Origin: a virus
Lineage: Duplodnaviria; Heunggongvirae; Uroviricota; Caudoviricetes
Virus record (IMG/VR): IMGVR_UViG_3300031993_000024
Location: 1-64,000 of that record
Direction: 5' to 3' (one strand)
DNA: 64,000 bases
Below, piece after piece: positions 1 to 42,136 of this stretch (position 1 is the first letter of the stretch; each line of letters opens with the position of its first letter). Under the pieces are notes generated by a model. It searched no databases and was not told the DNA's origin. It saw nothing but the letters and a program-made list of their open reading frames with translations. A program made the position numbers and the translations under genes.

Positions 1-258
1 ATTAACTTCATCAAGAAAATATTCGATATTATAGTCAGTAACCGGTTCGAATATATTCTCTATAAGGTATTTCACATTTTGGTTCTTGTGCGAATATTGG
101 ATATAAGGTATGTCCAAATACCGCCTGCCGTCCTCTTTATCTGTTATAACAAAAACATAAGTCCTTTCAGAATTGGCGTAATTACTCGGAAATTCAAACC
201 TGCCCTTAACATAGAACAAGCTTTCAAGAAATTCTTTAAATGTCAACAATGCCTTCAT
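1..258 (-). CDS. partial CDS running off the window start; N-terminus MKALLTFKEFLES... (CTS-like leader)
   Basis: Reverse complement of 256-258 is ATG, preceded by AAGGAG. My translation (MKALLTFKEFLESLFYVKGRFEFPSNYANSERTYVFVITDKEDGRRYLDIPYIQYSHKNQNVKYLIENIFEPVTDYNIEYFLDEVN) stays open to position 1. It is absent from the ORF track only because no stop lies inside the window. Confidence 0.45.
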   Translation of the reverse strand, partial: MKALLTFKEFLESLFYVKGRFEFPSNYANSERTYVFVITDKEDGRRYLDIPYIQYSHKNQNVKYLIENIFEPVTDYNIEYFLDEVN

Positions 259-299
259 CTCCTTATGTCATTACGTTATTATTTATGGTTATTGAAAAA

Positions 300-335
300 A
301 TATCCCGAAAACTAAGCAAGCCTTCGGGATATTTT
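300..335 (-). terminator. hairpin terminator downstream of the 360..1121 gene
   Basis: ATCCCGAA(n13)TTCGGGAT inverted repeat followed by a T-run on the minus strand, lying between the stop at 360 and the next minus-strand start at 258. Confidence 0.5.
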
Positions 336-359
336 TAGAACTATCTGATAATCAGTAAA

Positions 360-1121
360 TTATATACCTTTTAGGTCACCAGATTGCTTCATAGCAACTG
401 CCATATTGCCTTGCAGCAAGCCTATAAGGTTTATTTTTGAGAATGTACCGCTTACGAATGTCTTCATAATGTCATACATTTTATCTACTGTTTCCTTGTC
501 AGGATTTACCGTCAAGAAGATTGAATCTTCAGGGACAAGGCTTTCAAGTGCAGCTATATTGAAGCCTTCAAGCTCGGAAAGCAAAGACTTGAAGCAAGCG
601 ACATACAGCTCAGTAGGAACACCTGTCTTCCGGCTGCGTACTTTTATTTCAGCGATAAGCCAATCCATATTGTCAGCAGATATATTGTTTTCCCTTGCGA
701 AATCAAGTATCTCTGTCCTGAACTCACTTATATCCGGTACGATTGTTTTCCTGATTATAGAAGGAGTTTTTGGGTCGCTCAACTTGTTAAACAATGAATC
801 AAGGTTTTCATATACATTCTTATTGCCTATGGTCTTCGCAAATTCAAGTTCATCAATGCTGTTGCCTTCATCCAAAAACGGACTTTCCTTTACAATACGG
901 GAAAGCTTTACGACTCTGTTCTGTCCCTTAGAAAATGTACCGTTCCTTCCAAGAAGAATTGTTTCTGCCTCTTCTTCACTTGAAGCAATGCAGGTATCCT
1001 TAAAGTCGCTTATAATATCTCCCTTATTGTCATAAACAACAAAATGACCGGTATACGTTTCTTGCGAATCGAAGTCACTTGACTCTTTGATAAACTGCTT
1101 GTAAGTCTTTAACTTTTCCAT
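360..1121 (-). CDS. hypothetical protein with CTS-like N-terminal leader MEKLKTYKQFIKES
   Basis: 253-aa ORF. Its first 14 residues match the leaders of the 36263-44702 cluster; the body is unrelated to them. Confidence 0.75.
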   Translation of the reverse strand: MEKLKTYKQFIKESSDFDSQETYTGHFVVYDNKGDIISDFKDTCIASSEEEAETILLGRNGTFSKGQNRVVKLSRIVKESPFLDEGNSIDELEFAKTIGNKNVYENLDSLFNKLSDPKTPSIIRKTIVPDISEFRTEILDFARENNISADNMDWLIAEIKVRSRKTGVPTELYVACFKSLLSELEGFNIAALESLVPEDSIFLTVNPDKETVDKMYDIMKTFVSGTFSKINLIGLLQGNMAVAMKQSGDLKGI

Positions 1122-1125
1122 GATT

Positions 1126-3045
1126 TTATTTTATTAGGGTCAACATATTTTTATAACTTCTCTCATCGAAGAAAACTTCAAGGAAAGAATCAGATGTTTC
1201 AAGCCTTATGATTGCCGCAAAATCTTTGTTGTCAAACTGGACGTCTGCCTCAGGCGACAACTTGAAGAATTTGGTAGAGCCTGATTTATCGGTATATTGA
1301 AGCGTGGTGTTTCCACTGTCTTCGCCAAGCGTAACATCACCTTCGCTTGCCGAATTTTCCTTCCATTCAGACGAATAGTCTATGGCACCAATAATCTTGT
1401 AAATGCCGTTAGGGTCGTCAGCCTTGAACGCGTCTTTTATTTCAGAGAACTTGACTGTTGTACTTGGTTCGATGTCTGTCATCGCTTTCTCCAACACAAA
1501 ACCATATTTAGGGCTGCAGTCGAATGTCTCGAATCCGCCTGACGTCAATTCAGAACCTTCTACAAACATTCTGTATTCGTTGAATGTCATCAGATGTCCT
1601 TCTTCGACAATCTTGAACGGTTTCTCCTTGCCTATCGTCATTTCAATCTTTTTGTTCTTGAACTGTGTCCTAAGAGCTTCAAGAGCGTCATGAGCGACAA
1701 GCTTCGCTGCGTCGGAACCAAATCCGCGCAAGTCGTCATAATTGATATATACGAATTTACGCGGCCTGTTTTGGTTGTCGCCTGGAAGCGTGTAGTAGAA
1801 TCTCAGCATTATGATGTTGTCCATCGTGTAGTTCCTGAAATTCTGGTCGACTGACATCTGGAACAATGCCTTGTCAAGGTCGTTCGCCTTCTGTTTCGGA
1901 GTCTCTTCTTTCTTGAAGTAGCTCTTTATCTTCTTATACGTGTCATGGGTGATTTGCATATAGAAGTCGTCGTCTTCGATAAAGATGTAATACAAATCTT
2001 TGTCATAGTCGGACCAGATTATACGCTCTCCTTCTTTGTTATAGAATACAAGGCGAAGCATCTCGCTTGTCTTCGGCGTGTCGACGATGTCCTTGAATTC
2101 CTGCGGAGAAAGCTGCTCAGGGTCGCAAAGCCTTTCGACTGCCTCAGAAGATATGTCATTATATTTGCAGTAGTTCTTCGCTTTCTTAGCCCATTCATCT
2201 TTATCAAGGCTATCGAGATATACTCTGATTCTTGTAGGGTCTTGCGATATGTCGTCTATCTCCGATTTCGTCAGAGGTTTCTTTCTCGAGCCGTATTCCC
2301 TTGTAACGACATCGATAAAGACGTCGTCAGGCATGTTCTTAAGCAAGTCGTCAGCCTGTTGCTGCGTAAGCATTTTCTTACGGCAGTAGGCATTCCAGTT
2401 AGAATTCCAATCTGAATAAGGGTCCATCATATACTGGTTCTTCATTTCAGGATTCTTCAGGAAGTCCTGCACCGTCACACGTCCTTTGTCCTTAAGCTCG
2501 CGGTACCTCTTGTTGAAGTCACAGTGCTGGAACATGAAGTTCGTTATATGGACAAGCTTTATGCCGTTGCTCTTCGCCTTGTGCGTCATCACTCCTGTCT
2601 TTGTCACGGCGTTCACGCCTCTCTCTATGATTTTCCTCAATGCGGCATTGTCGCCCTCGTCGACAGCTTCAAGCTCTTCGACATCGAAACGCTCTATCTC
2701 TTTGCCGGTTTCAAGTTCATAGACAAGGAAATCTTTTCCGTCTTCTTTCTTTTCGGAATCAACTATGTCGAAGCCGACAACAGAATTGACGTTTATTCCC
2801 TTGTTCGTGCCTTCGCCTGACCCGTCAATGATTGCGTATGATATGTAACAGCCTTGTACGCCAAAACGAACTTTCACATTCGGATTCTTAAGCATCCTTA
2901 AAAGGTCGTTGACATTCTTTACCTCCTTTTTCTGCCCGTCGGCATCTATGTAATAAGGAGGATTTTCTGCCTGTTCTGTCTCCTGCACTTCGGCCTCGAT
3001 TTCCTCGACGCCTTCGCGGAGCATTCTAAAATTTCTTTTTCCCAT
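1126..3045 (-). CDS. hypothetical protein, 639 aa
   Basis: Long ORF tightly packed with its neighbours. No Walker A or other motif recognised. Sits next to the DnaA-domain gene and the putative origin region. Confidence 0.7.
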   Translation of the reverse strand: MGKRNFRMLREGVEEIEAEVQETEQAENPPYYIDADGQKKEVKNVNDLLRMLKNPNVKVRFGVQGCYISYAIIDGSGEGTNKGINVNSVVGFDIVDSEKKEDGKDFLVYELETGKEIERFDVEELEAVDEGDNAALRKIIERGVNAVTKTGVMTHKAKSNGIKLVHITNFMFQHCDFNKRYRELKDKGRVTVQDFLKNPEMKNQYMMDPYSDWNSNWNAYCRKKMLTQQQADDLLKNMPDDVFIDVVTREYGSRKKPLTKSEIDDISQDPTRIRVYLDSLDKDEWAKKAKNYCKYNDISSEAVERLCDPEQLSPQEFKDIVDTPKTSEMLRLVFYNKEGERIIWSDYDKDLYYIFIEDDDFYMQITHDTYKKIKSYFKKEETPKQKANDLDKALFQMSVDQNFRNYTMDNIIMLRFYYTLPGDNQNRPRKFVYINYDDLRGFGSDAAKLVAHDALEALRTQFKNKKIEMTIGKEKPFKIVEEGHLMTFNEYRMFVEGSELTSGGFETFDCSPKYGFVLEKAMTDIEPSTTVKFSEIKDAFKADDPNGIYKIIGAIDYSSEWKENSASEGDVTLGEDSGNTTLQYTDKSGSTKFFKLSPEADVQFDNKDFAAIIRLETSDSFLEVFFDERSYKNMLTLIK

Positions 3046-3047
3046 TT

Positions 3048-3557
3048 CTAAGATATTTTTATTCCTACCTTATTTATGGTTTCCGGATTTCCTCTGTCCT
3101 GAAGAATCTTCGCGACTTCCTTCTTCACCATCTCAATCTCATCGATGAGGGTGCGGCTGACCTTGTCCTTGTCGTACATGTCGTATGCCTGGCGTACTAC
3201 CCTTGAATAATAGCAGACACTTGAATGGTCTACCCTGAGGGCGTCGCTGCACTCGTACAGCGTCATACTCGAGGTTTCCCTGAGAATATATCCGGCAATG
3301 GTCTTGCAGCGGACGAACTGCGCCGACCTGAGGCCGCATAGAAATTTGTCCCTTGATATTCCGAGTATCCTTTCTGTCGCCGTGAAAACCACGTCGGCAT
3401 AATCCCCGCCGTACATCTGCCGCACTATCGTCTTCGCTGACTGCTCCTTCATAGAGCGCTTCATCCTTTTAATAAGAGTCTTTTTCTTTTCCAAGTTGCT
3501 CCTCAATGAAATCACTTCATCGATGAGCTCTTCTTTCGTCATCTTTTCTAACTTCAT
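3048..3557 (-). CDS. DnaA C-terminal (domain IV) helix-turn-helix-like DNA-binding protein
   Basis: CKTIAGYILRETSSMTLYECSDALRVDHSSVCYYSRVV aligns to the DnaA domain IV consensus (ARQIAMYLAREVT..SLPEIG..FGGRDHTTVMHA). Confidence 0.6.
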   Translation of the reverse strand: MKLEKMTKEELIDEVISLRSNLEKKKTLIKRMKRSMKEQSAKTIVRQMYGGDYADVVFTATERILGISRDKFLCGLRSAQFVRCKTIAGYILRETSSMTLYECSDALRVDHSSVCYYSRVVRQAYDMYDKDKVSRTLIDEIEMVKKEVAKILQDRGNPETINKVGIKIS

Positions 3558-3744
3558 CCCAACAAATTTTCTTTTTCTATTTATGTTTAACCCAACATAT
3601 AAAAAACAACGTTTCCAACAGAATTATTAACAACATCTGATGTTTACCTACTAAGGCTTTCGTAAGAAATTGAAATAAAAAGTGTTAAGCCTTCAGGCAA
3701 ACAGTCAGTCAGAAGACATCCTCCAATGACTAATTATTGAATTC

Positions 3745-3950
3745 GTATCCGTATATACATCACACGACGACACAGACGCGACCGTGGACGTACATCACCC
3801 ACGTATATGACGCACGTGCATATATGGCATACATGACGTACGTCACACGCAGGCACGGACGTTACACGGATATACGTGCATAAACACAGGCGAACGCACA
3901 ACGCACTTACGTGCATAATGCGTTCGGGCACGTCATACACGTGCCCAAGC
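3745..3950. promoter_or_regulatory. GC-rich block of ACGT-core palindromes and iterons in the strand-switch region; putative origin or regulatory region
   Basis: About 50% GC in a ~35% GC genome. Repeated (C)ACGTGCATA occurs three times. Palindromes include GACGTACGTC, GCACGTGC and CACGTG twice. There is also a perfect hairpin, GGGCACG-tcataca-CGTGCCC. The block lies between divergent gene blocks. Confidence 0.35.
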
Positions 3951-4158
3951 CAAAAAAAAATTAAGAATTCTTTAAGTATTTCTTAGTATTATTTCCTGGT
4001 ATATAATAGAGTTTCATTCGTGAAATCACTACGGTTTTCAGAATTGGGGAAAAGAACAAAAATAGATAAAAATCAGATATGAAAAAATAAAATTGGAAAA
4101 AATTTCAGAAAAATATAAAATTTTTTAGGAAAACGTGTACAACTTAAAAAAATAATAC

Positions 4159-4166
4159 TATATTTG
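4159..4166 (+). promoter_or_regulatory. TAtaTTTG -7 element (Bacteroidota sigma-A type) upstream of a putative small RNA
   Basis: TATATTTG matches the Bacteroides TAnnTTTG -7 consensus. Confidence 0.3.
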
Positions 4167-4171
4167 TAACT

Positions 4172-4248
4172 GTAATTTTCATTGGAACCCAAGCTCTTGG
4201 GTAACGAATTCTCTGGGTCCCTGTTGAAAAACAGGGATTTTTTTTTGA
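4172..4248 (+). ncRNA. candidate ~75-nt small RNA (two hairpins plus an intrinsic terminator)
   Basis: Non-coding stretch. It has hairpin CCCAAG-ctc-TTGGG, then hairpin CCCTGTT-gaaaa-AACAGGG followed by T9, and a TAnnTTTG motif just upstream. Confidence 0.3.
4219..4248 (+). terminator. rho-independent terminator
   Basis: CCCTGTTgaaaaAACAGGG followed by TTTTTTTTT. Confidence 0.6.
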
Positions 4249-4312
4249 TAGAAAGCATACAACTTAAATTTTTTTGGCTTTTATTTGCACTTAGAGAATT
4301 TAATTCTAACGA

Positions 4313-6387: not shown

Positions 6388-8085
6388 ATGGCAGGATTTA
6401 TTAACAGAGGTATAGGTACCGGAATGTACGGAGGCCAAGTGACATTGCGTAAGAAGCTCGCGAATGTCAGGTTTACCGGCAGGGCCTATTCGCCTGACAA
6501 TATGACATCGCTTTCGCAGGTAATATCTGTTCCGCAGAACAGCTGGCACCGCGCTGAAGGCATTGGAGGTTCGCAGCCTGCAAGTTATTCAGTACAGAGG
6601 GAGACTTGTAGGAAATACGCCGCAGAAGACGACATAGACAAAATACTTGATATTGTTTGTGACGAGAGTATTTGTTCGACAGAGCAAGACCGTGATTTCG
6701 CATATATAGAATCAACGGCTGACAAGATTTCTGAAAAAGTGAAGGAGAAACTGCCTGAATACTTTATGAAGTTCAGGTATCTCTACGGCCTTATGAATAC
6801 AGATGATGTCTGGAGGCTTTTCAGGAGATGGATTGTCGATGGCAAGCTTGCATACCGTATAATATATGACGAAAAACAGAAAAACATAATTGACTTTGTA
6901 GAGCTTGACCCAGCGAATGTCGAAAAGATATGTGACAAAGACGGCAAGATACTGTATAAGGTCAGCACTAATGACTTAACGACGGGGAATGTCATAAACC
7001 TTACGTTGACTGAGCAGGAGATTGTTATCATATCTTATTCAGATGAAGATAACGACCTCAGCTATGTTTCAAGGCTTATACGTTCATTCAATACATTGAG
7101 GATTATGGAATCGACGAGAATTATATTCTCTGTCGTCAACTCCTCTTTGAAAATGAATTATGTCGTACCTGTCGGAGCGGTGTCGCCACAAAAGGGAAAG
7201 CAACGACTCGCGCAAGTTGCAGCAGACCAGGCTGAGCAAGTTGACTTCAACTGGTCGACAGGCGAGATAAAGACCAACGGACATCCGATGTTGCCGTTCT
7301 ATAAGCAGATGTTCTTCGCCATGACTGAAGGCAGCAAGCCTGAAGTTTCGGTCTTGAGCAATAACGGTGGACCAGACTTGTCGAATATACAGCCGTTGAC
7401 GTATTTCGCCGATAAGTTCCACGATATAACGAAAGTACCTCTTGCAAGGTTTGACAGACAGGCTGGTGCCCAATATACGATGAACGTCGAAGGAATACAT
7501 AGGGAAGAAATCAGGTTCAGCAGGTTTATAGCAAGGCTTCGGAATATTTACCAGATGCTTTTTATCAAGCCTATCTATATTCAGATTTGTCTTGACAACG
7601 AAATAAAGGATGACATTTCTTTCCTTGCATCTTTGCACCTCGTATACCAGTCAGACTCAGTCTATCTTCAAATTAAGAAGCTTACAATCATACAGCAGAA
7701 TATCAATGCTATTTCAGGTATTCTTAATTCGATACAGGTAACTGACGAACAAGGAAACCAAACACCATATTTCGACCCTGACTTCTTAATGAAGAAATTC
7801 TCGTTGTTCACGCCTGCAGAGCTTGAAGAAAATGAGAGGATTAAGAAGGAGAAAGCTAAGAAACGTAAAGAAGAGGCAGAAAAGGCTGCTACTGAGCAAC
7901 AACCTTCTATGGGAGGTGATATGGGCGGTGGTGGAATGGATATGGGAGGTGGCGATATGGGAGGTGGCGATATGGGAGGCGGCATGGACATGGGCGGCGG
8001 AGGCGATATGGGAGGCAGCATGGACATGAGCGGCGGAGCTCCTGAAACCGGCGGCGCTCCAGAAGGCGGTGAACCTGCAGTTTAA
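6388..8085 (+). CDS. portal protein (T4 gp20-like) with a Gly/Asp/Met-repeat C-terminal tail
   Basis: FRRWIVDGKLAYRII matches T4 gp20 FRRWYVDSRIFFHKII. PLARFDRQAGAQYTMNVEGIHREEIRFSRFIARL matches gp20 [35 protein letters not shown]. Size and synteny with the protease and MCP genes also fit. Confidence 0.85.
   Translation: MAGFINRGIGTGMYGGQVTLRKKLANVRFTGRAYSPDNMTSLSQVISVPQNSWHRAEGIGGSQPASYSVQRETCRKYAAEDDIDKILDIVCDESICSTEQDRDFAYIESTADKISEKVKEKLPEYFMKFRYLYGLMNTDDVWRLFRRWIVDGKLAYRIIYDEKQKNIIDFVELDPANVEKICDKDGKILYKVSTNDLTTGNVINLTLTEQEIVIISYSDEDNDLSYVSRLIRSFNTLRIMESTRIIFSVVNSSLKMNYVVPVGAVSPQKGKQRLAQVAADQAEQVDFNWSTGEIKTNGHPMLPFYKQMFFAMTEGSKPEVSVLSNNGGPDLSNIQPLTYFADKFHDITKVPLARFDRQAGAQYTMNVEGIHREEIRFSRFIARLRNIYQMLFIKPIYIQICLDNEIKDDISFLASLHLVYQSDSVYLQIKKLTIIQQNINAISGILNSIQVTDEQGNQTPYFDPDFLMKKFSLFTPAELEENERIKKEKAKKRKEEAEKAATEQQPSMGGDMGGGGMDMGGGDMGGGDMGGGMDMGGGGDMGGSMDMSGGAPETGGAPEGGEPAV
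7909..8042 (+). repeat. in-frame (GGDMGGG/MDMGGG) low-complexity repeat encoding the portal C-terminal tail
   Basis: MGGDMGGGGMDMGGGDMGGGDMGGGMDMGGGGDMGGSMDMSGG; a locally GC-rich repeated ATGGGAGGTGGCGAT unit. Confidence 0.8.
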
Positions 8086-23774: not shown

Positions 23775-25730
23775 ATGGAAAATAAGAAATATATCGTTGA
23801 GAGTTTAAGTGACGGTGTCTGCTCAAGTTCTGCGGACGGCGGCGATATTGTTCTTGAAGGATGCTTCACGACATTTAACGTGAAGAATCGTAACAACAGG
23901 ATATATGACTCTAAGAATTTCCTTGAGAAGCTTGATGCTCTTACGGAAAAGATTAAGAATCATGACCTTCTCGGTGAGCTTGAACATCCCGCTAATATGA
24001 GGTATGTGTCTTATCAGAACGTTTCTCACATAGTTGAAAGTCTAAGCTATGACCAAAAGACAGATTCTATAAAGGGTCGTATCAAATTATTAAATACTCC
24101 TTCAGGAAGAATCGCGAAGACTCTTATAGAAAATAAAGTGCCTCTTCATATATCTTCAAGGGCTATCGGTACTTTGACACCTGACAATCATGTCGTTGTC
24201 GAAGAACTTATAACTTATGACCTTGTTGCTGAACCAGGTTTTGAGAATGCAGTTCTCCATGCAGTTAACGAAAGCAAGGGCGCGGGTTCTGACGCTCTTA
24301 TAAATGCCGTTAATGCTTTGAGTTCACAGAAGAATGCCAAAATGAAGAGCCGTGTAATACTCGAGTCTTTCGATGGCGCCGATTTGTACGAATTGCAGGA
24401 TGAAGGTCAGAAAGAACCTGAAAGCGGAAATGAAAAACCGAAAATAGACGGCAAGTCTATTATAGGTGAATTCCGTAAGGCGCTCGGTATGAATCCTGGC
24501 AAAATGGACATAACAGTCGACAGCGATATGGGTATCTGTTCTGTTGAATCAAATTCTGATACAGCAATAGTTAATTTCGTAAACGACCATGTTGAGGTTG
24601 AATTCGGAAAGAATGTAACAGGTGAATTCACAGGCATAATCAATAACGCTGTTGAACAATGTCTGAACAATATTGGTGCGAACATTACTGACGGTCCAAC
24701 CGTACAAGACGGAAAGACATATTTCTTTGTAAGTGGAATCAACTTTAATAATTATTATATGGAACAGAAGTTAGGCAACCCTCAAGATGTCGTAACAAGA
24801 CGCGACATGGATAAATACACTAAGTATTTGTCTGAATACTTGAATAAATTGAAAAAAGGTGTCGTTACAAGCGAAGACGTAGAAAAGTATACTGCATATC
24901 TTTCTGAACATCTTGCAGCTATGAATAAAAACGTAGTTACAAGTGATGCTATGGAAAAATATACAGGCTATCTGTCAGAACATCTTAAAAAGATGAATAA
25001 AGACGTTGTCACATCAAAGGATATGGAACGTTATACAGCATATTTGTCTGAACATCTTGAAAAGAACACGGTAACGGCTGAAATGCTTGAAGGATATACA
25101 AAATATCTTTCTGAAAGTTTCGATAAGGTTCTTCAGAAGAACAAGCAGCTTAATGAAAAAATTGAGATGCTTCAGAAGTATACAGAATATATCTCTGAGT
25201 CTCAGACTAAAATCAACAAAAAGCTTAGCGGTAAAATGCAGAGCATAGTTGAAGCTGCTGACAAATCTATAGAAGACATCAAGATGATGGTTGAAGGTAA
25301 ACAGCGCAGTACTGAAGACACTCAACTTCAAAACCTTGTGGAATCTGTAAATTCTATTGCTTCGTCTATTAAGGATACAAACAACAAGATGGAACAACAG
25401 AGTCAAGCCATAAATGAACAGAAATCTGTTACAGAGGCAGAAAAACTTATTCAATTTATGCCTGACTACTTGAAAGAATCTTGGAGCGCTCTTTCTGACA
25501 ACCGTAAGAAAGAAATCCTTAACGAAAGCAAATTGTATATTATCGGCAGTGTAGACGCAGCTGTTCGTTTCTGGAAGACAAGGAATCTTACGGAAAGCGT
25601 AAGCAGTCAAGATACGAAAAAATATCTTTCGGAATCTTTGAGGAATCAGAACAGGAACGTCCGTAATGAAGGAAAAGTACAGGCTTCTGTCGCTGAAGAG
25701 ATAAAAAGACGTTTGAAATACGGATTCTAA
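23775..25730 (+). CDS. prohead core protease (T4 gp21 family) fused to a coiled-coil scaffold-like C-terminal half
   Basis: N-terminal region (EGCFTTFNVKNRNNRIYD...GELEHP...HISSRAIG) fits the gp21/U9 serine protease His and Ser motifs. The C-terminal ~400 aa is helical and repetitive. 651 aa. Confidence 0.7.
   Translation: MENKKYIVESLSDGVCSSSADGGDIVLEGCFTTFNVKNRNNRIYDSKNFLEKLDALTEKIKNHDLLGELEHPANMRYVSYQNVSHIVESLSYDQKTDSIKGRIKLLNTPSGRIAKTLIENKVPLHISSRAIGTLTPDNHVVVEELITYDLVAEPGFENAVLHAVNESKGAGSDALINAVNALSSQKNAKMKSRVILESFDGADLYELQDEGQKEPESGNEKPKIDGKSIIGEFRKALGMNPGKMDITVDSDMGICSVESNSDTAIVNFVNDHVEVEFGKNVTGEFTGIINNAVEQCLNNIGANITDGPTVQDGKTYFFVSGINFNNYYMEQKLGNPQDVVTRRDMDKYTKYLSEYLNKLKKGVVTSEDVEKYTAYLSEHLAAMNKNVVTSDAMEKYTGYLSEHLKKMNKDVVTSKDMERYTAYLSEHLEKNTVTAEMLEGYTKYLSESFDKVLQKNKQLNEKIEMLQKYTEYISESQTKINKKLSGKMQSIVEAADKSIEDIKMMVEGKQRSTEDTQLQNLVESVNSIASSIKDTNNKMEQQSQAINEQKSVTEAEKLIQFMPDYLKESWSALSDNRKKEILNESKLYIIGSVDAAVRFWKTRNLTESVSSQDTKKYLSESLRNQNRNVRNEGKVQASVAEEIKRRLKYGF
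24804..25125 (+). repeat. about 4.5 in-frame tandem repeats (~72 nt, 24 aa: KYTxYLSEHLxxMNKxVVTSxDME) inside the scaffold region
   Basis: KYTKYLSEYLNKLKKGVVTSEDVE, then KYTAYLSEHLAAMNKNVVTSDAME, KYTGYLSEHLKKMNKDVVTSKDME, RYTAYLSEHLEKNTVTAEMLEG, YTKYLSESF. Confidence 0.8.
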
Positions 25731-25838: not shown

Positions 25839-27536
25839 TTGATAGAAATGGAAATCAATAGTGTAAAAGCCCTTCAGGATTGGGGCAAGGTGATTGAAGA
25901 ATCAACCGGAATAAAAGACCCTGTAAAAGTTGCTTGGATGTCTAAAGTTTGCGCTATCCAAGATAACGACGATAAAATGAAACCAATTTTGGAATCTGCT
26001 TTCTGGGGACCAACATTGAATCCGTCAATGACTATGCAAGGCGCTGGCGCAATTCAATTCCCTAATGGTGGTGAAAATGGTTTCTCTGGTGTACGTAACG
26101 GTTCAGCAGATGCAATCGCTTCAAGTGTAGCTATCGCAATGCAAGCAGCTGCTCAAACAATCGCTCTTGACTTGTTGGCAGTTGTACCGGTATCAGCTCC
26201 TCAAGGTCAATATCGTTTCTACGATACTGTTTACGAAGGTGGCCGTATCAATGGTGACTTGCGTACTTACGACAAAGATGGTAATGTAAGCTACAAATTT
26301 ACAAATGCAGTTGCTGACCCATTGCTTGTTGAAGTTGTTGAAGCTTCTGAAGAAGGTGCAGAATTATTGAAGAAAGTTATCGAAGCTGAAGGTTCTGAAG
26401 CTCCTGTTATTGAACAAGGTGATTTCAAATTGACATTCGTTGAACTTGGCTTCATCTCTGGTAAACCAATCTTCTTAGTTGAAAGAAAAGACGCTAAACC
26501 GGGTGAATTCAATGCACGTCGTTTCAATGGCGCTCAAACTCTTGCAGAAGCATTCGAAGGTATCTTCGTATTCGGTCAAGTAAATACGAAAGAAAATCAC
26601 ATCACTGCATTCACAGGTCGTGACTTCTATGAAAACTCAGTAGAAAAAACTGGTTCAAAGAATCCTTACGACAACAATTTCGGTGTAGAACCATTCGAAC
26701 GTGAAGAAGGAGAAGCTACTACAGTTAACTTCTTGGGTGCTAAACGTACTTCTTTCGATTACAAAGTAAGAACTTACCAAGTTGGTTTCTCAGCTACTTG
26801 GGAACAAATCGAAGATGCACAGGCTGACGGTCAAGACATCATCGCTCAAATCGAAGGTGATGCTCTTAACGAATTGTCTCAATCTACTAACAAGTACATC
26901 TTAACTAAGATGTGGGAATTGGCTGGCAAACATGCTGACCGTCTTGAAGACAGAGGCGAAGTATTGAACACTTACTTCAAATCAGTTGCAGATGCTGACG
27001 AAGACATTCCTGCTGCTTACAAAGATTACAAACAAGTAGTTGTTGACAACGGTGGTGAAACTTCGTTGACACTTCAAGCACGTGTAATGCGTAAATTGTT
27101 GTATGCTGCTAACATCATCTCTCACGATTCTCGTTTGTCAGGTGGTAAATTCTTCGCTATCGGTTCTACTCAGTTCGTAACTGCAGTACAATCTGTAGCA
27201 GGTCTTACTCAAATCACTTTGCCTAACAACGTTCAATCTGTAGCTGATGCTCCTAATCCAATTGGACAGGTAAGCAACATTACATTGTACCAAGACCCGA
27301 ACCTTCCTGTAAACTATACAGGCGTTTTGGTTGGTCGTATCACTAAACCTAATGACCCAGGTTTGATTTTCTTACCATACATTATGGCTAAGAAAGTAAC
27401 TACGACAGCAACTGCGACATTCGCATACGCTGGTGCAATGAAATCTCGTTTCGCACTTCTTGCTGCTGGTCACTATCCAGATTTGCAATACTTGCGTTTC
27501 GATATGGCATTTAGCCCATCAATCGAACTTGTGTAA
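25839..27536 (+). CDS. major capsid protein (T4 gp23-like)
   Basis: AAQTIALDLLAVVPVSAPQGQYRFYDTVYEG aligns to gp23 AIPNLIAFDICGVQPMNSPTGQVFALRAVYG. GGENGFSGVRNGSADAI matches gp23* N-terminal GGDHGYNATNIAAGQTSGA. An I-L-E|S site at residue 52 is consistent with propeptide removal. Confidence 0.9.
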   Translation: MIEMEINSVKALQDWGKVIEESTGIKDPVKVAWMSKVCAIQDNDDKMKPILESAFWGPTLNPSMTMQGAGAIQFPNGGENGFSGVRNGSADAIASSVAIAMQAAAQTIALDLLAVVPVSAPQGQYRFYDTVYEGGRINGDLRTYDKDGNVSYKFTNAVADPLLVEVVEASEEGAELLKKVIEAEGSEAPVIEQGDFKLTFVELGFISGKPIFLVERKDAKPGEFNARRFNGAQTLAEAFEGIFVFGQVNTKENHITAFTGRDFYENSVEKTGSKNPYDNNFGVEPFEREEGEATTVNFLGAKRTSFDYKVRTYQVGFSATWEQIEDAQADGQDIIAQIEGDALNELSQSTNKYILTKMWELAGKHADRLEDRGEVLNTYFKSVADADEDIPAAYKDYKQVVVDNGGETSLTLQARVMRKLLYAANIISHDSRLSGGKFFAIGSTQFVTAVQSVAGLTQITLPNNVQSVADAPNPIGQVSNITLYQDPNLPVNYTGVLVGRITKPNDPGLIFLPYIMAKKVTTTATATFAYAGAMKSRFALLAAGHYPDLQYLRFDMAFSPSIELV

Positions 27537-36262: not shown

Positions 36263-37111
36263 ATGGAAAAATTAAAGACATTCAAAAGCTTCATCAAAGA
36301 AAGTATTGATTTGAATGCTTTCAGAAAAAATAATGGAAAGTACTATCCTGAAGATAGAGATGAATTGAAATTGCTTATGGAAGCTCTTATAGAGGAGAGA
36401 GGTTTTGAAGGTGACTTTAATGATATTGACACATCAAGGATTACTGATATGAGCCATTTATTTGCATTTGCCAGAAGTTTTAATGGTGATATATCACAAT
36501 GGGATACAAGTAATGTGACGAACATGCGAAGAATGTTCAGTAGTGCAGAAAAGTTCAATCAATCTATTGAAAACTGGGAGGTTTCAAATGTAAAAGATAT
36601 GGGAATGATGTTTATGTCTGCAAAAAGTTTCAATCAACCTATTGGAAACTGGAATGTATCAAATGTAGAGGATATGGGAAGTATGTTTAGTGCTGCAGAA
36701 AAGTTCAACCAATCTATTGAAAACTGGGATGTCTCAAATGTCAAAATTATGAGAAGTATGTTTAGTGCTGCAAAAAGCTTCAATCAGCCAATTGGAAACT
36801 GGAATATTTCAAATGCCTATTATATGCCTTTTATGTTCCATAGAGCAGAGAAGTTCAATCAACCAATTGAAAACTGGGATGTCTCAAATGTAAAAAATAT
36901 GAGAAGCATGTTTAGTTTTGCAAAATGTTTTAATCAGCCAATTGGAAACTGGGATGTTTCAAATGTAGAAGATATGGAAGCTATGTTTCATTATACTGAA
37001 TCTTTCAACCAAGATATTTCAAATTGGAATGTTTCGAAAGAAGTAATATGCAGGGATATGTTCGTTAATTGTCCAATCAAGCAGGAATATAAACCTGATA
37101 TAAAACAATAA
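36263..37111 (+). CDS. CTS-like leader (MEKLKTFKSFIKES) plus DUF285/BspA-like repeat protein
   Basis: Leader, then ~9 repeats of FNQxIxNWxVSNVxxMxxMF, matching the DUF285 mycoplasma-type repeat. Confidence 0.8.
   Translation: MEKLKTFKSFIKESIDLNAFRKNNGKYYPEDRDELKLLMEALIEERGFEGDFNDIDTSRITDMSHLFAFARSFNGDISQWDTSNVTNMRRMFSSAEKFNQSIENWEVSNVKDMGMMFMSAKSFNQPIGNWNVSNVEDMGSMFSAAEKFNQSIENWDVSNVKIMRSMFSAAKSFNQPIGNWNISNAYYMPFMFHRAEKFNQPIENWDVSNVKNMRSMFSFAKCFNQPIGNWDVSNVEDMEAMFHYTESFNQDISNWNVSKEVICRDMFVNCPIKQEYKPDIKQ
36470..37060 (+). repeat. in-frame ~75-78-nt tandem repeats encoding DUF285-type repeats
   Basis: FNQSIENWEVSNVKDMGMMFMSAKS, then FNQPIGNWNVSNVEDMGSMFSAAEK, and so on. Confidence 0.75.
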
Positions 37112-37259: not shown

Positions 37260-37802
37260 ATGGAAAAATTAAAGTCTTATAAACAGTTAATTGCAGAATC
37301 AGATGATGCCGGAAGATTCTTGAAAGCTGATACAAGTGTAATAAGCGATTCCATTTATGAGTCTTTCTTTGAAAAGCCATTTCAAGGGGAAGAAAGAACG
37401 CTTGAAGATTTGTATGCTGTATCTAAGACATCCGACAAGTATAAAGGTCTTAGATTAAAAGAAATATCCAAGATTGAAACTGATATACAAATAATTCAGG
37501 CTATAGATAAATGGGTTGAGAAGAAAAACGTTCGTGATTATACTTTCCTGAAGAGAATTGGGCAAGGTTCGATGATAAACACGAAACTATATTCATCTAA
37601 AAATACGCATTGGGGCGGCATGGCGACAGTCGACCTTATGAATGGTATCGCGAAACATGTCATTTACGATTACTCCGAGACCATAGAAGGAGAAGCAATC
37701 GAAGGCTTCATGAAGATAGAGTATAATGATGATATGCTTGCGATATACCAGCAGTATGACAACCATACTGTAGGCAAGTATCATATCTATGTAAAACTGT
37801 AG
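37260..37802 (+). CDS. hypothetical protein with CTS-like leader MEKLKSYKQLIAES
   Basis: The track ORF 37224 starts at a non-ATG codon. The ATG at 37260 sits inside the conserved cassette. Confidence 0.7.
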   Translation: MEKLKSYKQLIAESDDAGRFLKADTSVISDSIYESFFEKPFQGEERTLEDLYAVSKTSDKYKGLRLKEISKIETDIQIIQAIDKWVEKKNVRDYTFLKRIGQGSMINTKLYSSKNTHWGGMATVDLMNGIAKHVIYDYSETIEGEAIEGFMKIEYNDDMLAIYQQYDNHTVGKYHIYVKL

Positions 37803-38798: not shown

Positions 38799-40706
38799 AT
38801 GGAACACTTAAAGACATTCAAACAATTTTATGAATCAAGGGAAGAGGACCTTGAACTGTACAATAAGGCGAAAGACGCATACTATAATGGCAACCCCATT
38901 ATGGGCGACGCTGAATTTGATGAACTCGAAAGAAAGCTTGGTCTTGAAAATCAGGGCTATATAGGTACACATCATTCTGATAATTATACCGTAAAACATC
39001 CGATAAAAATGGGAAGCCTTTCGAAAATACAGATAAAAGAAGGTTCAGACGGTCAAACCCATTTTGACTCATATATCGATACCCTTAACAAGTATTTCCA
39101 AAATGTTCCGGACGATGGAATCATTGAGGTAACTCCAAAATTCGATGGATGTTCTTTTGAGGTTGTGTTCGATGACGAAGGAAATGTTGAAGGAATATCG
39201 ACAAGAGGCGATGGTGAATACGGTACGGATGTAAGCCACTGGCTGAGTCCTTATGTAGACGAAATACCTTACAAGGAATTCCTGCAGAAAGGCAAGAAGC
39301 TCGTGGTAAGGGGAGAAGCTCTTATAAGCTTTAATGACTTTAACGCAGGCTATCAGGATAAATTCGCGAATACAAGGGCGTTTGTTGCTGGCATGTTCGG
39401 TCAGAAATGGGACGGAAAACAGGAACAGCTTGATATAAGGAAAGATTTGTCAATAGTTGTGTATGACTTCAGGCTTGTATCTCCGTCAGGCTCATATCAA
39501 TGGGTTGACTATAATACGGTTCCTGGCTATGACGTATGCGCATACAATGTGCTTACCTTTAAGAAATCAGAACTCAGTCCTATGGAATTCGCGAGGATTT
39601 ACGAAGAAATGGAGAAAGTTCGTAAGGATTACAAATTCCCTCTTGACGGTTTCGTGTTGAAACCAGAAGTGAAATACCGCAAGACGGAAGATGTTCAGCG
39701 TCCGAGCGACTGCGTCGCAATCAAATACAAACCAAGTATCCTCGAGACAGAAATCACGGAGATAGAATGGAATGTTGGAAAGACAGGAGAACTTTTCCCG
39801 AAGGCTGTGTTCAAGACAATAAAGATGGACGGAAAGAACATCAACAAGGCGTCATTGCATAACTACGGATATGTTAAGGACAATAACGTCGGAGTTGGTT
39901 CCATCATTAAGATTTCGCTTGCCGGCGATATAATTCCTTTCGTGTATGAAATCGTAAGAGACGGAGGCGACAATATGGCTCCTACCGAGAATGTGACCGT
40001 TAAAGGACCTCATCTTATGATTGACTTGTCTGCTGAAGAAAAAGTTGTCATAAAGGTAATAGCAGGCGCTGAGGCGATAAACATCAGAAATTTCAAAGAG
40101 GCGACGATACGTAAGATTATGCCTGAGTTCTTTACAAGCGAGGATGTAAAAATCGAGAATGTCCTTGACTTTATGAAAGATGAATCAATCGCTTTTATGA
40201 AGGAACGTTTCGGAACAGGGACATCGATAATGAATATCGTAAACGCTCTTACTGAAAGACGTAAGACTTTGACGCTTAATGAAATCATACTTGCCCTGCA
40301 GTTCCGTCTGTGCGGTAAGGTCGCTGCCGATGTCTGTGCCAAGTTTATCAAGGGCGACAAGTCAAATCATCTCATAGGCGTGCCTGGTGAAGTCAAGAGA
40401 TGGCTTCTTGATGAGAATTCTCAGGAATACCAGACTATTATGGGGTATGCGAATTTGTTCAAAGTTAATATGGCTCCGGAAGCGGCCGCTGCGTCGACGG
40501 CGATACCTGTGATTATGACAGGAAGTCCGAAAGAATTCGGATATGTTACCAAGGCAGCTTTCCTTGCCGCACATCCTGAATATATAGAGACATCTGACTG
40601 GAAGCAATGTAAAATCCTGTTTACGGACGATATGTCTTCGACATCCGGAAAAATGAAGAAAGCTGCCGCTCTTGGAGTTGAGGTGAAAACATACGGGGAA
40701 GCATAA
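38799..40706 (+). CDS. ligA: NAD-dependent DNA ligase (LigA-like domains Ia, NTase, OB, HhH, BRCT) preceded by CTS-like leader MEHLKTFKQFYES
   Basis: YYNGNPIMGDAEFDEL fits domain Ia. KMGSLSKI fits LigA PMLSLDNAF. TPKFDGCSF is the KxDG motif; STRGDGEYGTDVS fits ATRGDGTTGEDIT; FANTRAFVAGMFGQ fits motif IV NPRNAAAGSLRQ. LAGDIIPFVYEIV marks the OB end. HhH-like and BRCT-like regions (AIPVIMTGS...LGVEV) are present. Confidence 0.85.
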   Translation: MEHLKTFKQFYESREEDLELYNKAKDAYYNGNPIMGDAEFDELERKLGLENQGYIGTHHSDNYTVKHPIKMGSLSKIQIKEGSDGQTHFDSYIDTLNKYFQNVPDDGIIEVTPKFDGCSFEVVFDDEGNVEGISTRGDGEYGTDVSHWLSPYVDEIPYKEFLQKGKKLVVRGEALISFNDFNAGYQDKFANTRAFVAGMFGQKWDGKQEQLDIRKDLSIVVYDFRLVSPSGSYQWVDYNTVPGYDVCAYNVLTFKKSELSPMEFARIYEEMEKVRKDYKFPLDGFVLKPEVKYRKTEDVQRPSDCVAIKYKPSILETEITEIEWNVGKTGELFPKAVFKTIKMDGKNINKASLHNYGYVKDNNVGVGSIIKISLAGDIIPFVYEIVRDGGDNMAPTENVTVKGPHLMIDLSAEEKVVIKVIAGAEAINIRNFKEATIRKIMPEFFTSEDVKIENVLDFMKDESIAFMKERFGTGTSIMNIVNALTERRKTLTLNEIILALQFRLCGKVAADVCAKFIKGDKSNHLIGVPGEVKRWLLDENSQEYQTIMGYANLFKVNMAPEAAAASTAIPVIMTGSPKEFGYVTKAAFLAAHPEYIETSDWKQCKILFTDDMSSTSGKMKKAAALGVEVKTYGEA

Positions 40707-40724: not shown

Positions 40725-41420
40725 ATGAAAAAATTAAAGACATATAATCAGTTCCTTAAAGAAGGAAAAGGCATACGTAAAGAATATGACAGCAGCCTTG
40801 AAAATATGATGGATGAATACGGAAGTGATTCCTATGGTTCTGTCATAACAAAAGAGGTCGAGGAACTGCAGACAATGCTGAAGGACAAAAATCTTTTGGA
40901 GCCTGTCGATAAAGTTGTGTCTGTAATGTTATACCCTGAACAAGATTGGCATCCGATATATGCGATGATACGTCTTGAAAACGGCTTGCAGTACGTAACG
41001 ACAATTATAAATGTAGCCGATAAAAGCAAACTAAGACTGATGTCTGACGAGATGTATAAGATATTGCTTGAATGGCTTCAGAATGTCATAGATGAAGACA
41101 AGAAGAAAAAATCAAGTATGAAGTCAATGCCTGAAATCAAGGATTTGCTGCCTGAATATCTGAATATCGTCAGTAGATTTGTTGAAATGTTTAATATAGG
41201 CAGAGCCAAGTATGAAGCTAAGATATATAAGACAGACTCGATTCTTATTACATATAACGGAAGATATAATGGGGTTCTCATATTCTCCAAAACTGAGTAT
41301 GCCTATAATATCGAAGTACATGCTGTTACTGGCGGATTTTATGATACTGATTATTTGTATGATGAATCCAGCAAAGTTATTAAAGATGCCGTTAATTACA
41401 TTTTAAAACAACAACTATGA
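40725..41420 (+). CDS. hypothetical protein with CTS-like leader MKKLKTYNQFLKEG
   Basis: 231-aa ORF. Confidence 0.7.
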   Translation: MKKLKTYNQFLKEGKGIRKEYDSSLENMMDEYGSDSYGSVITKEVEELQTMLKDKNLLEPVDKVVSVMLYPEQDWHPIYAMIRLENGLQYVTTIINVADKSKLRLMSDEMYKILLEWLQNVIDEDKKKKSSMKSMPEIKDLLPEYLNIVSRFVEMFNIGRAKYEAKIYKTDSILITYNGRYNGVLIFSKTEYAYNIEVHAVTGGFYDTDYLYDESSKVIKDAVNYILKQQL

Positions 41421-42136
41421 TTATGAAAATAAATGACAGAAATATGAAAGATATTCTCGGCGAGCTTAGTAAGGTCGTATCTGATGCGATAGGTCTTGAG
41501 AATATCGTTGGTTACTATACGAAGAAAACATACAGCTTCAAGTCAGATGTCCTGACGATTACTTTGTCTTATCACGAAGACCCTCAACGGGAATATTATG
41601 ATTTGAAGCAAATCAAGTCTGACGCGTATAATGCCGCTCAGAGTATATTTGGAGTATTTGCTCTGCAAGATTATAAAGAGCAAGCTGATGTTACGAAAGA
41701 TGAGATGTACGTCAATATCATCTTCAAGTTTACTGTCGACGAACTTGAAAAGGTGAAAGTCGTATATGACAGGCTTTTTACCGAGGGTAGCTCAAAGCTA
41801 CTTACTTACAGCCAGTTTATCAATGAGAGTTCTAAGAATGGTGTAGAGCTTGGTAACTATGAATTCGCGTATAGATGCGATGAAGAGGAGAATGCCGACG
41901 AGCTTATGGAAATAACTCATTATGACGAATTTGCGAATAATGACTACAGCATACAGGATGATTATTTCGGTTCTACAGTTAAAATCGTCAATACCGATGA
42001 GATGCTTCCACATTTATTCGGCAACAAGCCTGAAGAGTCAGAGATAGAATACTGTGCTTTGAATACCGTTTTGAACATAGCATTCATACTTGATAAATCT
42101 GGCTATCATTGGATTTATGAACTACTCACAAACTAA
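41417..42136 (+). CDS. hypothetical protein (no leader); its 3' end overlaps the tnpB stop by 15 nt
   Basis: 239-aa ORF; the last codons may be IS-derived. Confidence 0.55.
   Translation: MIMKINDRNMKDILGELSKVVSDAIGLENIVGYYTKKTYSFKSDVLTITLSYHEDPQREYYDLKQIKSDAYNAAQSIFGVFALQDYKEQADVTKDEMYVNIIFKFTVDELEKVKVVYDRLFTEGSSKLLTYSQFINESSKNGVELGNYEFAYRCDEEENADELMEITHYDEFANNDYSIQDDYFGSTVKIVNTDEMLPHLFGNKPEESEIEYCALNTVLNIAFILDKSGYHWIYELLTN

Follow-up and report, generated by a model that had tools for sequence, protein, structure and literature searches.

Genes at the left end of the window

The analysed stretch (hereafter the window) comprises 64,000 nucleotides of a jumbo myovirus with a T4-type head, and encodes a Gp20 portal, a gp21-family protease and a Gp23-like capsid protein (Table 1). 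At its left end lie g253, whose translation starts with MEKLKTYKQFIKES, and g151, an open frame that starts with MKALLTFKEFLES and continues past the window edge. The first 400 bases of the window are identical to the 238,631-bp contig ena:ERZ27257203:k141_1795869, on which g151 is complete (L004 10864-11319), and the gene is also intact in a sister contig with 4 synonymous and 2 non-synonymous differences. The analysis covered ~85 kb of the contig; the source samples are ERZ27257203, ERZ27256849 and SRR9008933. Extending the contig to recover the full gene, as the first-pass annotation had proposed, thus gave a 151-aa product, and the early stop that the annotation had named as grounds for discarding the frame does not occur.

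Table 1. Leader genes, head genes and neighbouring features in the window (a slash after a leader or an N-terminal sequence marks the predicted cleavage point)
Feature	Position	Strand	Remarks
g151, 5' part (86 codons) of a 151-aa gene	1..258	-	predicted mature product ~17 kDa, pI 4.8
g151 leader, MKALLTFKEFLE/S	220..258	-	subtype without a residue between L and E
ATAAATA box	280..286	-	22 nt upstream of the g151 start; fits the T4 late-promoter consensus
g253, leader-bearing, 253 aa	360..1121	-	predicted mature product ~27 kDa, pI 4.7
g253 leader, MEKLKTYKQFIKE/S	1080..1121	-	aromatic pair Y7 and F10; predicted cleavage motif I-K-E/S
639-aa gene, without leader or family match	1126..3045	-	ATAAATA box at 3071-3077
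169-aa protein	3048..3557	-	sub-threshold DnaA_C helix-turn-helix match; ATAAATA box at 3578-3584
T4-type portal	6388..8085	+	Pfam Portal_T4/Gp20, E = 9e-61
Prohead protease fused to scaffold-like region, 651 aa	23775..25730	+	residues 1 to ~200 of the gp21 family (Peptidase_S77)
Gp23-like major capsid protein	25848..27536	+	leader-like N-terminus ALQDWGKVIEE18/S; also KPILE49/S
gDUF285, leader MEKLKTFKSFIKE/S	36263..37111	+	leader fused to DUF285 (BspA-like) repeats
g180, leader MEKLKSYKQLIAE/S, 180 aa	37260..37802	+	~60-nt promoter/UTR/leader cassette as in gDUF285
Leader gene, MSKGLLTYSKFLKE/S, 156 aa	37808..38278	+	
g157, leader MEKLKTFKSFINE/A, 157 aa	38280..38753	+	
NAD-dependent DNA ligase (LigA)	38799..40706	+	leader MEHLKTFKQFYE/S ahead of domain Ia
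Leader gene, MKKLKTYNQFLKE/G, 231 aa	40725..41420	+	
239-aa ORF	41417..42136	+	internal leader copy SSKLLTYSQFINE/S (nt 41789-41830, aa ~128-141)
g238, leader MGKLMTYKQFME/N, 238 aa	43986..44702	+	

The first-pass annotation had also placed g253 and g151 beside replication-side genes, and here the genomic context offers little in its favour. The supposed DnaA-domain protein, which is the 169-aa product of the first gene of the leftward block, has a helix-turn-helix match below threshold (23.6 bits versus a cutoff of 31.5), and no iteron array or iteron-like repeats were found in the adjacent intergenic region (3500-4400) that had been suggested as an origin. The block starts from T4-late-promoter-like boxes and runs on into fibre-like genes (1382 and 726 aa). 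The 639-aa gene lies 4 nt upstream of g253 and, because of this short gap and of the ATAAATA box ahead of it, the two are probably co-transcribed. On the full contig, two further genes, whose leaders are degenerate (MSELKIYSKWLE.. and MGNLKTFSEY..), come directly after g151, so that the left end is a second leader cluster, within a late operon, and not a pair beside replication genes. An isolated position of g253 and g151 is not supported.

All homologues of g253 and g151 were uncharacterised metagenomic proteins, and none was found for g151 outside this phage lineage. A blastn search with positions 1-8000 of the window against 50,697 phage records gave no match, an exact 45-mer taken at the window edge was not found in IMG/VR, and the AlphaFold2 model of g253 obtained without an alignment (pLDDT 43) was too poor for a fold search.

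A leader motif common to both clusters

As had been claimed from the first reading, g253 and g151 share their leader with the cluster at 36-44 kb: the same motif of ~13 residues is common to these two genes and eight genes of that cluster. The earlier count of nine leaders is right for the N-terminal copies, and one further copy is internal. The pattern L.[TS][FY]..[FL][ILMY].?E, derived from the window's own sequences, matched 10 times in the six-frame translation of the window versus a mean of 0.41 and a maximum of 2 in shuffles, and chance (~0.4 copies expected) was rejected as the source of these matches. In nine of the 10, the match begins 3-4 residues behind the ATG with which a long ORF starts. 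The remaining one lies inside ORF 41417..42136, which is probably an upstream gene fused to a leader gene. The pattern KT[FY]..F[IL].E, taken only from T4 IPII/IPIII, gave 4 matches versus 0.02 expected, all of them N-terminal and g253 among them. Back-translated MEKLKT[FY]K found 8 matches in IMG/VR, all due to chance, with nothing leader-like after the seed and stops in several. Pfam and PHROGs yielded no match for g253, g151, g260L, g235L, g238 or the fused ORF.

The leaders are 12-14 residues long with I or L at P3, and all of them retain the aromatic pair. I/L-x-E is kept in six N-terminal leaders and in the internal copy, and is replaced by F/W-[LYM]-E in the leaders of g151, the ligase, g238 and g260L, so that cleavage in that register is uncertain for these four. 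T4 IPI provides a precedent for cleavage further downstream. A secretion or lipoprotein signal peptide was rejected by direct reading of the g253 leader, which is charged and amphipathic without a hydrophobic run (a hydrophobic core of ~10 or more residues behind a basic N-region being needed). In public gene calls g238 starts at 43998, giving MTYKQFME. The cluster at 36-44 kb is collinear between the sister contigs, and hypervariability, looked for between them, was not found at their shallow divergence.

Head genes and the protease-scaffold polyprotein

The protease aligned with T4 gp21 at 32% identity over 131 aa (BLASTP, E = 3e-11), including the blocks LGELEHP versus LGELNHP and ISSRAIG versus VSSRGLG around the expected catalytic His and Ser, and scored better with the S77 profile (46.5 bits) than with S80 (30.1 bits). 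Its own N-terminus, MENKKYIVE9/S, parallels the "LIE-9" of T4 gp21. In the C-terminal region of the polyprotein, KYTxY[LI]SE is repeated six times (repeat region aa 340-480) and [IL]xES occurs at ten sites; its middle domain is paralogous to a leader-like 123-aa gene that adjoins the left cluster past the window edge (E = 9e-17). The tetrapeptide [IL]xES, with which most leaders end, was found 10 times in this polyprotein versus 8 times in all other proteins together, and S followed [IL]xE at 8 of 17 sites in the scaffold part versus 8 of 204 elsewhere (Fisher p = 1.8e-6). Outside the leaders and the protease-scaffold polyprotein, the strict core [FYW]xx[FYW][IL]xE[SAG] did not occur.

ATAAATA boxes resembling T4 late promoters lie ahead of head and tail genes as well as of the left-end block and g180, and 18 of 30 lie at most 80 nt upstream of a same-strand start versus ~5% expected. 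This placement before head/tail and leader genes is consistent with co-expression with proheads; only some of the leader genes have a late-promoter-like box of their own.

Comparison with the T4 capsid targeting sequence

In T4, the capsid targeting sequence (CTS) is carried by IPI, IPII and IPIII (Mullaney and Black 1996, reviewed in PMC9026906 and PMC3012670), with the N-termini MKTYQEFIAE/A in IPII and IPIII and MKTFKEFTST..ITE/A in IPI (AF158101). The T4 CTS and the window leaders are both N-terminal propeptides of 10-19 residues, and their cores can be set side by side (MKTYQEFIAE/A and MKTFKEF.. in T4, ..KTYKQFIKE/S and ..LTFKEFLE/S in the window), LTFKEF of g151 corresponding to KTFKEF of IPI. 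The aromatic pair, the I/L and the Glu at the cleavage site, which is a predicted one in the window, stand at corresponding positions. Asp at position 10 of the T4 sequence prevents processing but leaves targeting intact. Residues 4 and 7 of the T4 CTS set targeting and residues 8 and 10 set processing (PMC9026906); at the equivalent sites the window leaders have an aromatic residue at both targeting positions, I/L/M/Y at 8 and Glu at 10. The T-even internal proteins are mutually unrelated cargoes (PMC3012670), and in T4 as in the window the tag sits on unrelated cargoes encoded in small clusters, in a genome with a gp21-family protease, a Gp20 portal and a Gp23 capsid protein. The relationship between leader and scaffold or capsid protein is the same in T4, where the gp23 site is F59GSF62LTE65/A, at the end of a propeptide of 65 residues, and the gp22 N-terminus is MLKEQLIAE/A.

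There are also differences. The window leaders have about three extra residues (M-E-K-L) ahead of the core and usually Ser at P1' instead of the Ala of T4, and the protease and scaffold are fused, unlike in T4. In portal and protease the window phage, known from metagenomic contigs alone, shares only ~30% identity with phages of the T4 group; among sequenced phages it comes closest to Lak-type and other huge phages. The T-even internal proteins are typically small and have been characterised as basic (PMC9026906), whereas the predicted mature leader proteins are mostly acidic (pI 4.2-5.9 except for g157, pI 8.8), range from 14 to 70 kDa and include enzymes. The mature parts of g253 and g151 showed no homology to IPI, IPII, IPIII or Alt in Pfam or PHROGs, and since their homologues are all uncharacterised metagenomic proteins we regard them as analogues with the same tag, not as orthologues of the internal proteins.

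Portability of the leader

The comparisons among leader genes support the earlier proposal, which preferred a portable N-terminal module to simple tandem duplication. No significant pair was found among the mature parts in an all-versus-all BLASTP, and similarity between the genes was higher in the leader (0.66) than in the 45 nt upstream (0.35) or downstream of the leader (0.30). Leader identity was higher at codon positions 1 and 2 (0.76) than at position 3 (0.47), which argues for selection on the peptide. The mutual dissimilarity of the mature parts itself supports portability, and so do three individual cases. The window ligase, with its KxDG adenylation motif (TPKFDGCS), is behind its leader an otherwise ordinary NAD-dependent DNA ligase; among its orthologues only the seven closest have a leader (for example the leader-like extension MMNYKEFISE), which is absent from ~110 more distant phage ligases. 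The g253 product has one domain at aa 2-90 and another at aa 109-224; in other metagenomes these two are encoded by separate genes, each with its own leader and in tandem with other leader genes. Finally, gDUF285 and g180 share a cassette of ~60 nt covering promoter, 5'UTR and first five codons, and their similarity collapses after codon 5.

Leaders also occur beyond the window. In a relative (L017), an ADP-ribosyltransferase (PF03496) has the N-terminus MIKTFAEYIAE/RR. Within 20 kb on either side of the head genes of LR756500 and LR756504, the nearest sequenced huge phages, we found no leader cluster and one isolated candidate, MSDTYNEFVNE.

Discussion

We consider it likely, from sequence comparison, that the leader is a T4-type capsid (prohead-core) targeting sequence and that the leader proteins are cargo targeted to the prohead, trimmed by its protease and ejected with the DNA; on this reading the leader genes, g253 and g151 included, are predicted to encode internal or ejection proteins. 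The first ~13 residues, forming a short amphipathic stretch whose two aromatic residues are spaced i, i+3, would dock the nascent protein onto the scaffolding core during prohead assembly, the core being here presumably the C-terminal part of the protease-scaffold polyprotein with its six copies of a similar motif. After closure of the shell, the gp21-family prohead protease would cut behind the Glu of I/L-x-E/S; the mature protein, thereby released within the head, would enter the host with the DNA. New cargo could be gained when the leader, at times with promoter and 5'UTR, is placed before a gene. That these proteins dock to the core, are cleaved, reside in the virion and are ejected is what we infer.

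This reading is supported by the T4-type head genes in the same genome, the match at the positions mapped in T4, the paralogy between the 123-aa leader-like gene and a polyprotein domain, the late-promoter-like boxes, the portability of the leader and the unrelated nature of its cargoes. These comprise an NAD-dependent DNA ligase, a protein with DUF285 repeats and several ORFans, to which a relative adds an ADP-ribosyltransferase. The enrichment of [IL]xES in the polyprotein and its presence at the protease and capsid N-termini give indirect support to the predicted cleavage. Counting against targeting are the mostly acidic cargoes, the four leaders with F/W-[LYM]-E, the restriction of own late-promoter-like boxes to some leader genes, the lack of a leader cluster near the LR756500 and LR756504 head genes, and the ligase, a replication enzyme unexpected as capsid cargo, for which a limited literature search found no capsid-packaged precedent. 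The CTS mechanism is itself known; the setting, an uncultured 239-kb phage distant from T4, and the cargo, including a DNA ligase, are new.

The conserved segment could instead be an N-terminal protein tag with another purpose, such as docking to another assembly or compartment, a degradation or regulatory tag or a common oligomerisation helix, its likeness to the T4 CTS being convergent. Both the tagged ligase and the acidic cargoes, which fit the T4 internal proteins poorly, would be in line with such a tag, but we judge it improbable: it leaves unexplained the match at the four functionally mapped positions of T4, the concentration of the tetrapeptide in the polyprotein and at the capsid N-terminus, and the domain common to the leader-like gene and the prohead polyprotein.

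Two other explanations seem to us less probable still. If the segment were an RNA or DNA element (a translation-initiation enhancer or a promoter-proximal cassette) and the peptide likeness its by-product, the A-rich leader and the cassette of gDUF285 and g180 would be accounted for, but not the excess of identity at codon positions 1 and 2 with free synonymous use of TTC, TTT, TAT and TAC, the lack of common upstream DNA in other pairs, the internal in-frame copy in 41417..42136, or the peptide pattern kept with different codons in relatives of 27-37% GC. Equally remote is an ordinary paralogous family, grown by tandem duplication, with a slowly evolving N-terminus and a remainder diverged beyond recognition. 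Most copies are indeed adjacent and on the same strand, but with the leader set aside the proteins fall into distinct, recognisable families (LigA, DUF285) or are mutually unrelated ORFans, a leaderless LigA is the ancestral state among ~110 homologues, and g253 joins two modules that are found separately elsewhere.

The predicted targeting has parallels in other phages. The Alt protein of T4, an ADP-ribosyltransferase, is taken up into the head, cut back by gp21 and injected, an enzyme cargo delivered with the DNA; the ADP-ribosyltransferase of L017, outside the window and likened to Alt by its PF03496 class, bears a near-T4 CTS (MIKTFAEYIAE). The Alt propeptide has only 7 residues, and its C-terminus is also cut (PMC9026906). 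The jumbo phages phiKZ, 201phi2-1 and SPN3US have propeptides on head and ejection proteins and proteases of the Peptidase_S80 family (PMC5694885); many of their head-internal proteins are cut after Glu by a diverged gp21 homologue, and paralogues can have conserved N-termini in common. Their cleavage motif is A/S/G-x-E and their propeptides mostly exceed 100 residues (PMC5694885). We rejected a leader of this type for the window, given the short leaders with P3 as in T4 and the higher S77 than S80 score. In phage P1, an N-terminal signal of DarB suffices to load this large anti-restriction enzyme into the capsid (PMC9024508); P1 has a different head lineage, its Dar proteins lack a consensus sequence and no likeness to the window motif has been reported.

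A wider reading, which we put forward as a speculation with less than even prospects, is that the CTS is ancient and portable across the T4 head superfamily, that it mimics a repeated scaffold motif and that this jumbo lineage pre-loads enzymes for co-injection. The mimicked motif would be the six KYTxY[LI]SE repeats here, and the gp22 N-terminus and gp23 cleavage site in T4. How the core recognises CTS cargo has been termed still mysterious in T4 (PMC9958956), and scaffold mimicry, if true, would give a concrete and testable answer, for which the scaffold repeats suggest a mechanism. In this gut-type jumbo lineage the co-injected cargo could include the NAD-dependent DNA ligase and, in the relative, the ADP-ribosyltransferase; the ligase, if injected, could close nicks at entry or act against nicking defences of the host.

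If the targeting prediction holds, the CTS, characterised so far in T4 and close relatives, also works in a deep-branching uncultured jumbo lineage, and DNA ligase is flagged as an unexpected class of cargo. Sequence alone would then allow the prediction, in metagenomic phages, of injected "first-strike" proteins as candidates for anti-defence and host-takeover factors, and the compact tag of ~13 residues could be useful for engineered protein delivery by non-E. coli phages.

Occurrence of the Leader and Extent of the Left-End Genes

Translation placed the common leader, an N-terminal motif of ~13 residues, at the start of the 253-aa protein g253 (MEKLKTYKQFIKES) and of g151 (MKALLTFKEFLES), whose frame stayed open up to the window edge. 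Eight plus-strand genes at 36.2–44.7 kb started with the same motif. The six-frame translation of the window contained 10 matches to L.[TS][FY]..[FL][ILMY].?E, and shuffled sequences contained 0.41 on average (maximum 2); nine copies lay 3–4 residues past the start codon (ATG) of a long ORF, the tenth within a single ORF, hereafter the internal-leader ORF. Of the 87 predicted genes, 9 had a relaxed leader core within their first 22 residues, versus 3.1% of interior 22-residue windows. The leader observation holds, and chance falls far short of explaining it.

Identical or 99% identical copies of the g253 protein were found on two contigs of 238,631 and 235,706 bp, and the window was identical to the former over the 400 bases compared. 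Extending the contig, as the first-pass annotation had proposed, recovered the frame truncated in the window as a complete 151-aa gene, intact in the sister contig with four synonymous and two non-synonymous differences. In the same comparison, g253 also showed four synonymous and two non-synonymous differences and the 639-aa gene upstream of it 29 and one. Neither g253 nor g151 had a family in Pfam or PHROG searches, and g151 had no homologue outside its own cluster among 5.8 billion proteins.

Beyond the left window edge, the next two genes (260 and 123 aa) start with MSELKIYSKWLE↓G (the arrow marks the predicted cleavage point) and MGNLKTFSEYRRD, both degenerate leaders, so that the left end holds a second cluster, with about four leader genes. 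The 123-aa gene, a neighbour of g151, is paralogous to the middle domain (aa 229–328) of the prohead protease-scaffold polyprotein (32% identity, E = 9e-17); past it come a gene of 235 aa and two fibre-like ones (1382 and 726 aa). The leader family had been described as dispersed and its left members as lying next to replication-side genes. Neither description was supported: this block is a late operon running into the fibre genes, the DnaA match was a sub-threshold HTH and no iterons were found.

Portability of the Leader

The suggestion of a portable N-terminal module gained support. No similarity was detected between the mature parts of any pair of leader proteins, and at the DNA level the leader cores of these genes shared an identity of 0.66, compared with 0.35 for the sequence upstream and 0.30 for that downstream. 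Inside the leader, codon positions 1+2 were more alike (identity 0.76) than position 3 (0.47), indicating that selection acts on the peptide. The genes gDUF285 and g180 also had ~60 nt in common, from a TATAAAT box across the 5'UTR to the end of codon 5, beyond which similarity collapsed.

The profile match of the NAD-dependent DNA ligase (LigA) starts at residue 19. In a comparison of 120 homologues, the seven closest ligases (54–100% identity, including the window's own) all carried leader-like extensions, namely MDTMPSFKEFINES, MMNYKEFISE, MEHILSRADFLAES, MKHILSRVDFIKEA, ..AFDEFKVNES, ..YLNES and, in the window, MEHLKTFKQFYES; the remaining homologues, including those of Lak phages, started directly with domain Ia or had unrelated N-termini. 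The contigs of relatives are also T4-like (gp32, gp13, NrdD). On one, an ADP-ribosyltransferase starts with MIKTFAEYIAE↓RR, and in another relative an 18-residue N-terminus is identical between the ligase and its neighbour gene.

A full HMMER scan, covering 1.84 billion representatives, matched g253 residues 2–90 to a 169-aa protein (start MGNLKTFKSFINE) and residues 109–224 to a 148-aa protein (start MKTLKSFKQFLKE), each in tandem with another leader gene. Since its two parts exist as separate leader genes, g253 is a fusion of two predicted cargo modules. The internal-leader ORF is probably a gene fusion retaining the leader of the second gene, and looks like a more recent event of the same kind; if cleaved at the internal leader, it would yield two products.

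Relationship to T4 and the Huge Phages

At 37.7% GC, the window carries genes for several virion proteins of T4 type, namely a portal (Portal_T4, E = 9e-61), a tail sheath, a Gp23-like capsid protein and a gp21-family prohead protease, which matched Peptidase_S77 and, less strongly, Peptidase_S80. The N-domain of the protease was 32% identical to T4 gp21 (E = 3e-11), with the aligned blocks LGELEHP/LGELNHP and ISSRAIG/VSSRGLG in the expected catalytic His and Ser regions. The nearest sequenced phages in tblastn searches were uncultured huge phages (LR756500: portal 37%, protease domain 49%); Prevotella Lak megaphages gave ~30%, and more than 1,000 T4-like records gave weaker matches than both. 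Distant homologues of the ligase (~42% identity) include Lak megaphages (Hatfieldvirus). Taken together, the ligase, portal and protease matches place the phage near Lak-type and other huge phages and suggest a Bacteroidota host and a gut-type habitat.

Eighteen of 30 ATAAATA boxes lay 16–58 nt upstream of a same-strand start codon versus ~5% expected, among them the boxes preceding portal, sheath and protease; for the capsid gene, the nearest box (25751) fell slightly outside this range. Boxes also preceded g151, the 639-aa gene, a 169-aa HTH gene and g180. These sequences indicate that the phage uses the T4 late-promoter consensus. One protein with a sub-threshold Sigma70_r2 match may be a gp55-type late sigma factor. 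Two relatives (L016, L019) carry Sigma70_r2 genes close to the ligase.

The T4 internal-protein propeptides, of 10–19 residues, are capsid targeting sequences (CTS) sufficient for loading foreign proteins into the prohead core; targeting depends on their residues 4 and 7, and processing by gp21, a protease that cleaves C-terminal to Glu, on residues 8 and 10 (PMC9026906; PMC3012670; PMC5694885). In AF158101, IPII and IPIII start with MKTYQEFIAE↓A and IPI with MKTFKEFTST..ITE↓A. The window leaders, including ..KTYKQFIKE↓S, ..KTFKSFIKE↓S and ..LTFKEFLE↓S, retain, in register with the CTS, its aromatic pair, I/L and Glu. A pattern taken from T4 only, KT[FY]..F[IL].E, matched four N-termini in the window versus 0.02 expected.

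T4 encodes its protease (gp21) and its scaffold (gp22) separately. The protease ORF of the window specifies a 651-aa polyprotein that joins the protease to ~450 aa of scaffold-like sequence, and the polyprotein's N-terminus, MENKKYIVE9↓S, parallels the 'LIE-9' of T4 gp21 (PMC9026906). The scaffold-like region holds 22 [IL]xE sites and six tandem ~24-aa repeats, [DE][KRG]YTxY[LI]SE..VVTS (aa 348–476), with the leader's pattern aromatic-xx-aromatic-[IL]-x-E. Among the 87 proteins, the strict core [FYW]xx[FYW][IL]xE[SAG] was confined to the leaders and the polyprotein. The tetrapeptide [IL]xES occurred 10 times in the polyprotein versus 8 in all other proteins combined, the N-termini of the latter being removed, and Ser followed [IL]xE at 8 of 17 sites in the scaffold part versus 8 of 204 elsewhere (Fisher p = 1.8e-6). 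The N-terminus of the capsid protein contains ALQDWGKVIEE18↓S and KPILE49↓S; T4 gp23 has the site F59GSF62LTE65↓A66, ending a 65-residue propeptide, and T4 gp22 starts with MLKEQLIAE↓A. The T4 CTS likewise resembles the core and shell proteins of its phage (gp22, gp23), as the window leaders do.

Interpretation

The best-supported reading is that the leader system would be a distant lineage's version of the T4 CTS and internal proteins. We consider it quite probable that all leader genes, g253 and g151 included, encode cargo that would be routed to the prohead, processed by the gp21-type protease and delivered together with the DNA. The cargoes are mostly acidic, which weighs against this reading, as does the I/L missing at P3 in four leaders. 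Also counting against it, a limited literature search gave no precedent for a DNA ligase as capsid cargo, and the leader cluster was not seen in the nearest huge phages, sampled in part.

The leader could instead be a tag for another destination, which we regard as unlikely; that it acts as an RNA-level element, or that the leader genes reflect ordinary paralogy, seems in either case very improbable. These three explanations are weaker than that of prohead cargo: identity by codon position, enrichment in the scaffold and the comparison of ligases all count against them. The mechanism is already known from T4, and what is new is the member set in an uncharacterised jumbo-phage lineage. For specialists, the interest lies in near-identical tag chemistry over a very large evolutionary distance, in predicted enzyme cargo including a DNA ligase, and in scaffold repeats that hint at the way in which the tag is recognised.

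Other Features

Coordinates of the features discussed, in the window unless a contig is named
Coordinates	Strand	Feature
1..258	-	g151, cut by window edge
360..1121	-	g253
5244, 6356, 8599, 15470, 18170, 20741, 23745, 29600	+	(T)ATAAATA boxes, examples
280, 3071, 3578	-	(T)ATAAATA boxes, examples
23775..25730	+	prohead protease-scaffold polyprotein
31758-32726; 33435-35183	+	ATPgrasp_TupA and TOD1_MUCI70 families
36263..37111	+	gDUF285
37260..37802	+	g180
38799..40706	+	NAD-dependent DNA ligase LigA
41417..42136	+	internal-leader ORF; in-frame leader SSKLLTYSQFINES at 41789-41830, past ~127 residues
42122-43318	-	TnpB/IS605 OrfB
46819-47400		Sigma70_r2, E = 3e-4, 20.9 bits (cutoff 24)
57923-59230	+	RtcB-type RNA ligase, Pfam E = 2e-52
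62904-63311; 63314-63631; 63628-64000	+	small tandem ORFs
4524-5783 (L001, sister contig)		additional TnpB
12112-12483 (L004, ERZ27257203, 238,631 bp)		123-aa gene left of window edge, leader-like start MGNLKTFSEY
12581-13837 (L017, contig of a relative)		TnpB

Two proteins of the glycosyltransferase region share a second N-terminal module, unrelated to the leader: their first 52 residues are 65% identical (MKYRxKILIK..PIRKSxLPxNI), after which they are unrelated. The TnpB gene of the window is inserted within the 36–44 kb leader cluster; the additional copy of the sister contig, between 285-aa and 197-aa genes, is missing from L004 and the window, and that of L017 adjoins the relative's ligase. 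The element seems active in this phage lineage. The three small tandem ORFs are paralogue-like, with similar starts (M.EDYVSF..A.LLKE.GFD) and a common ..AP.LQ[VM].MKW motif. The window encodes an RtcB-type RNA ligase besides the DNA ligase; phage RtcB is usually tied to the repair of tRNAs cut by host defences.
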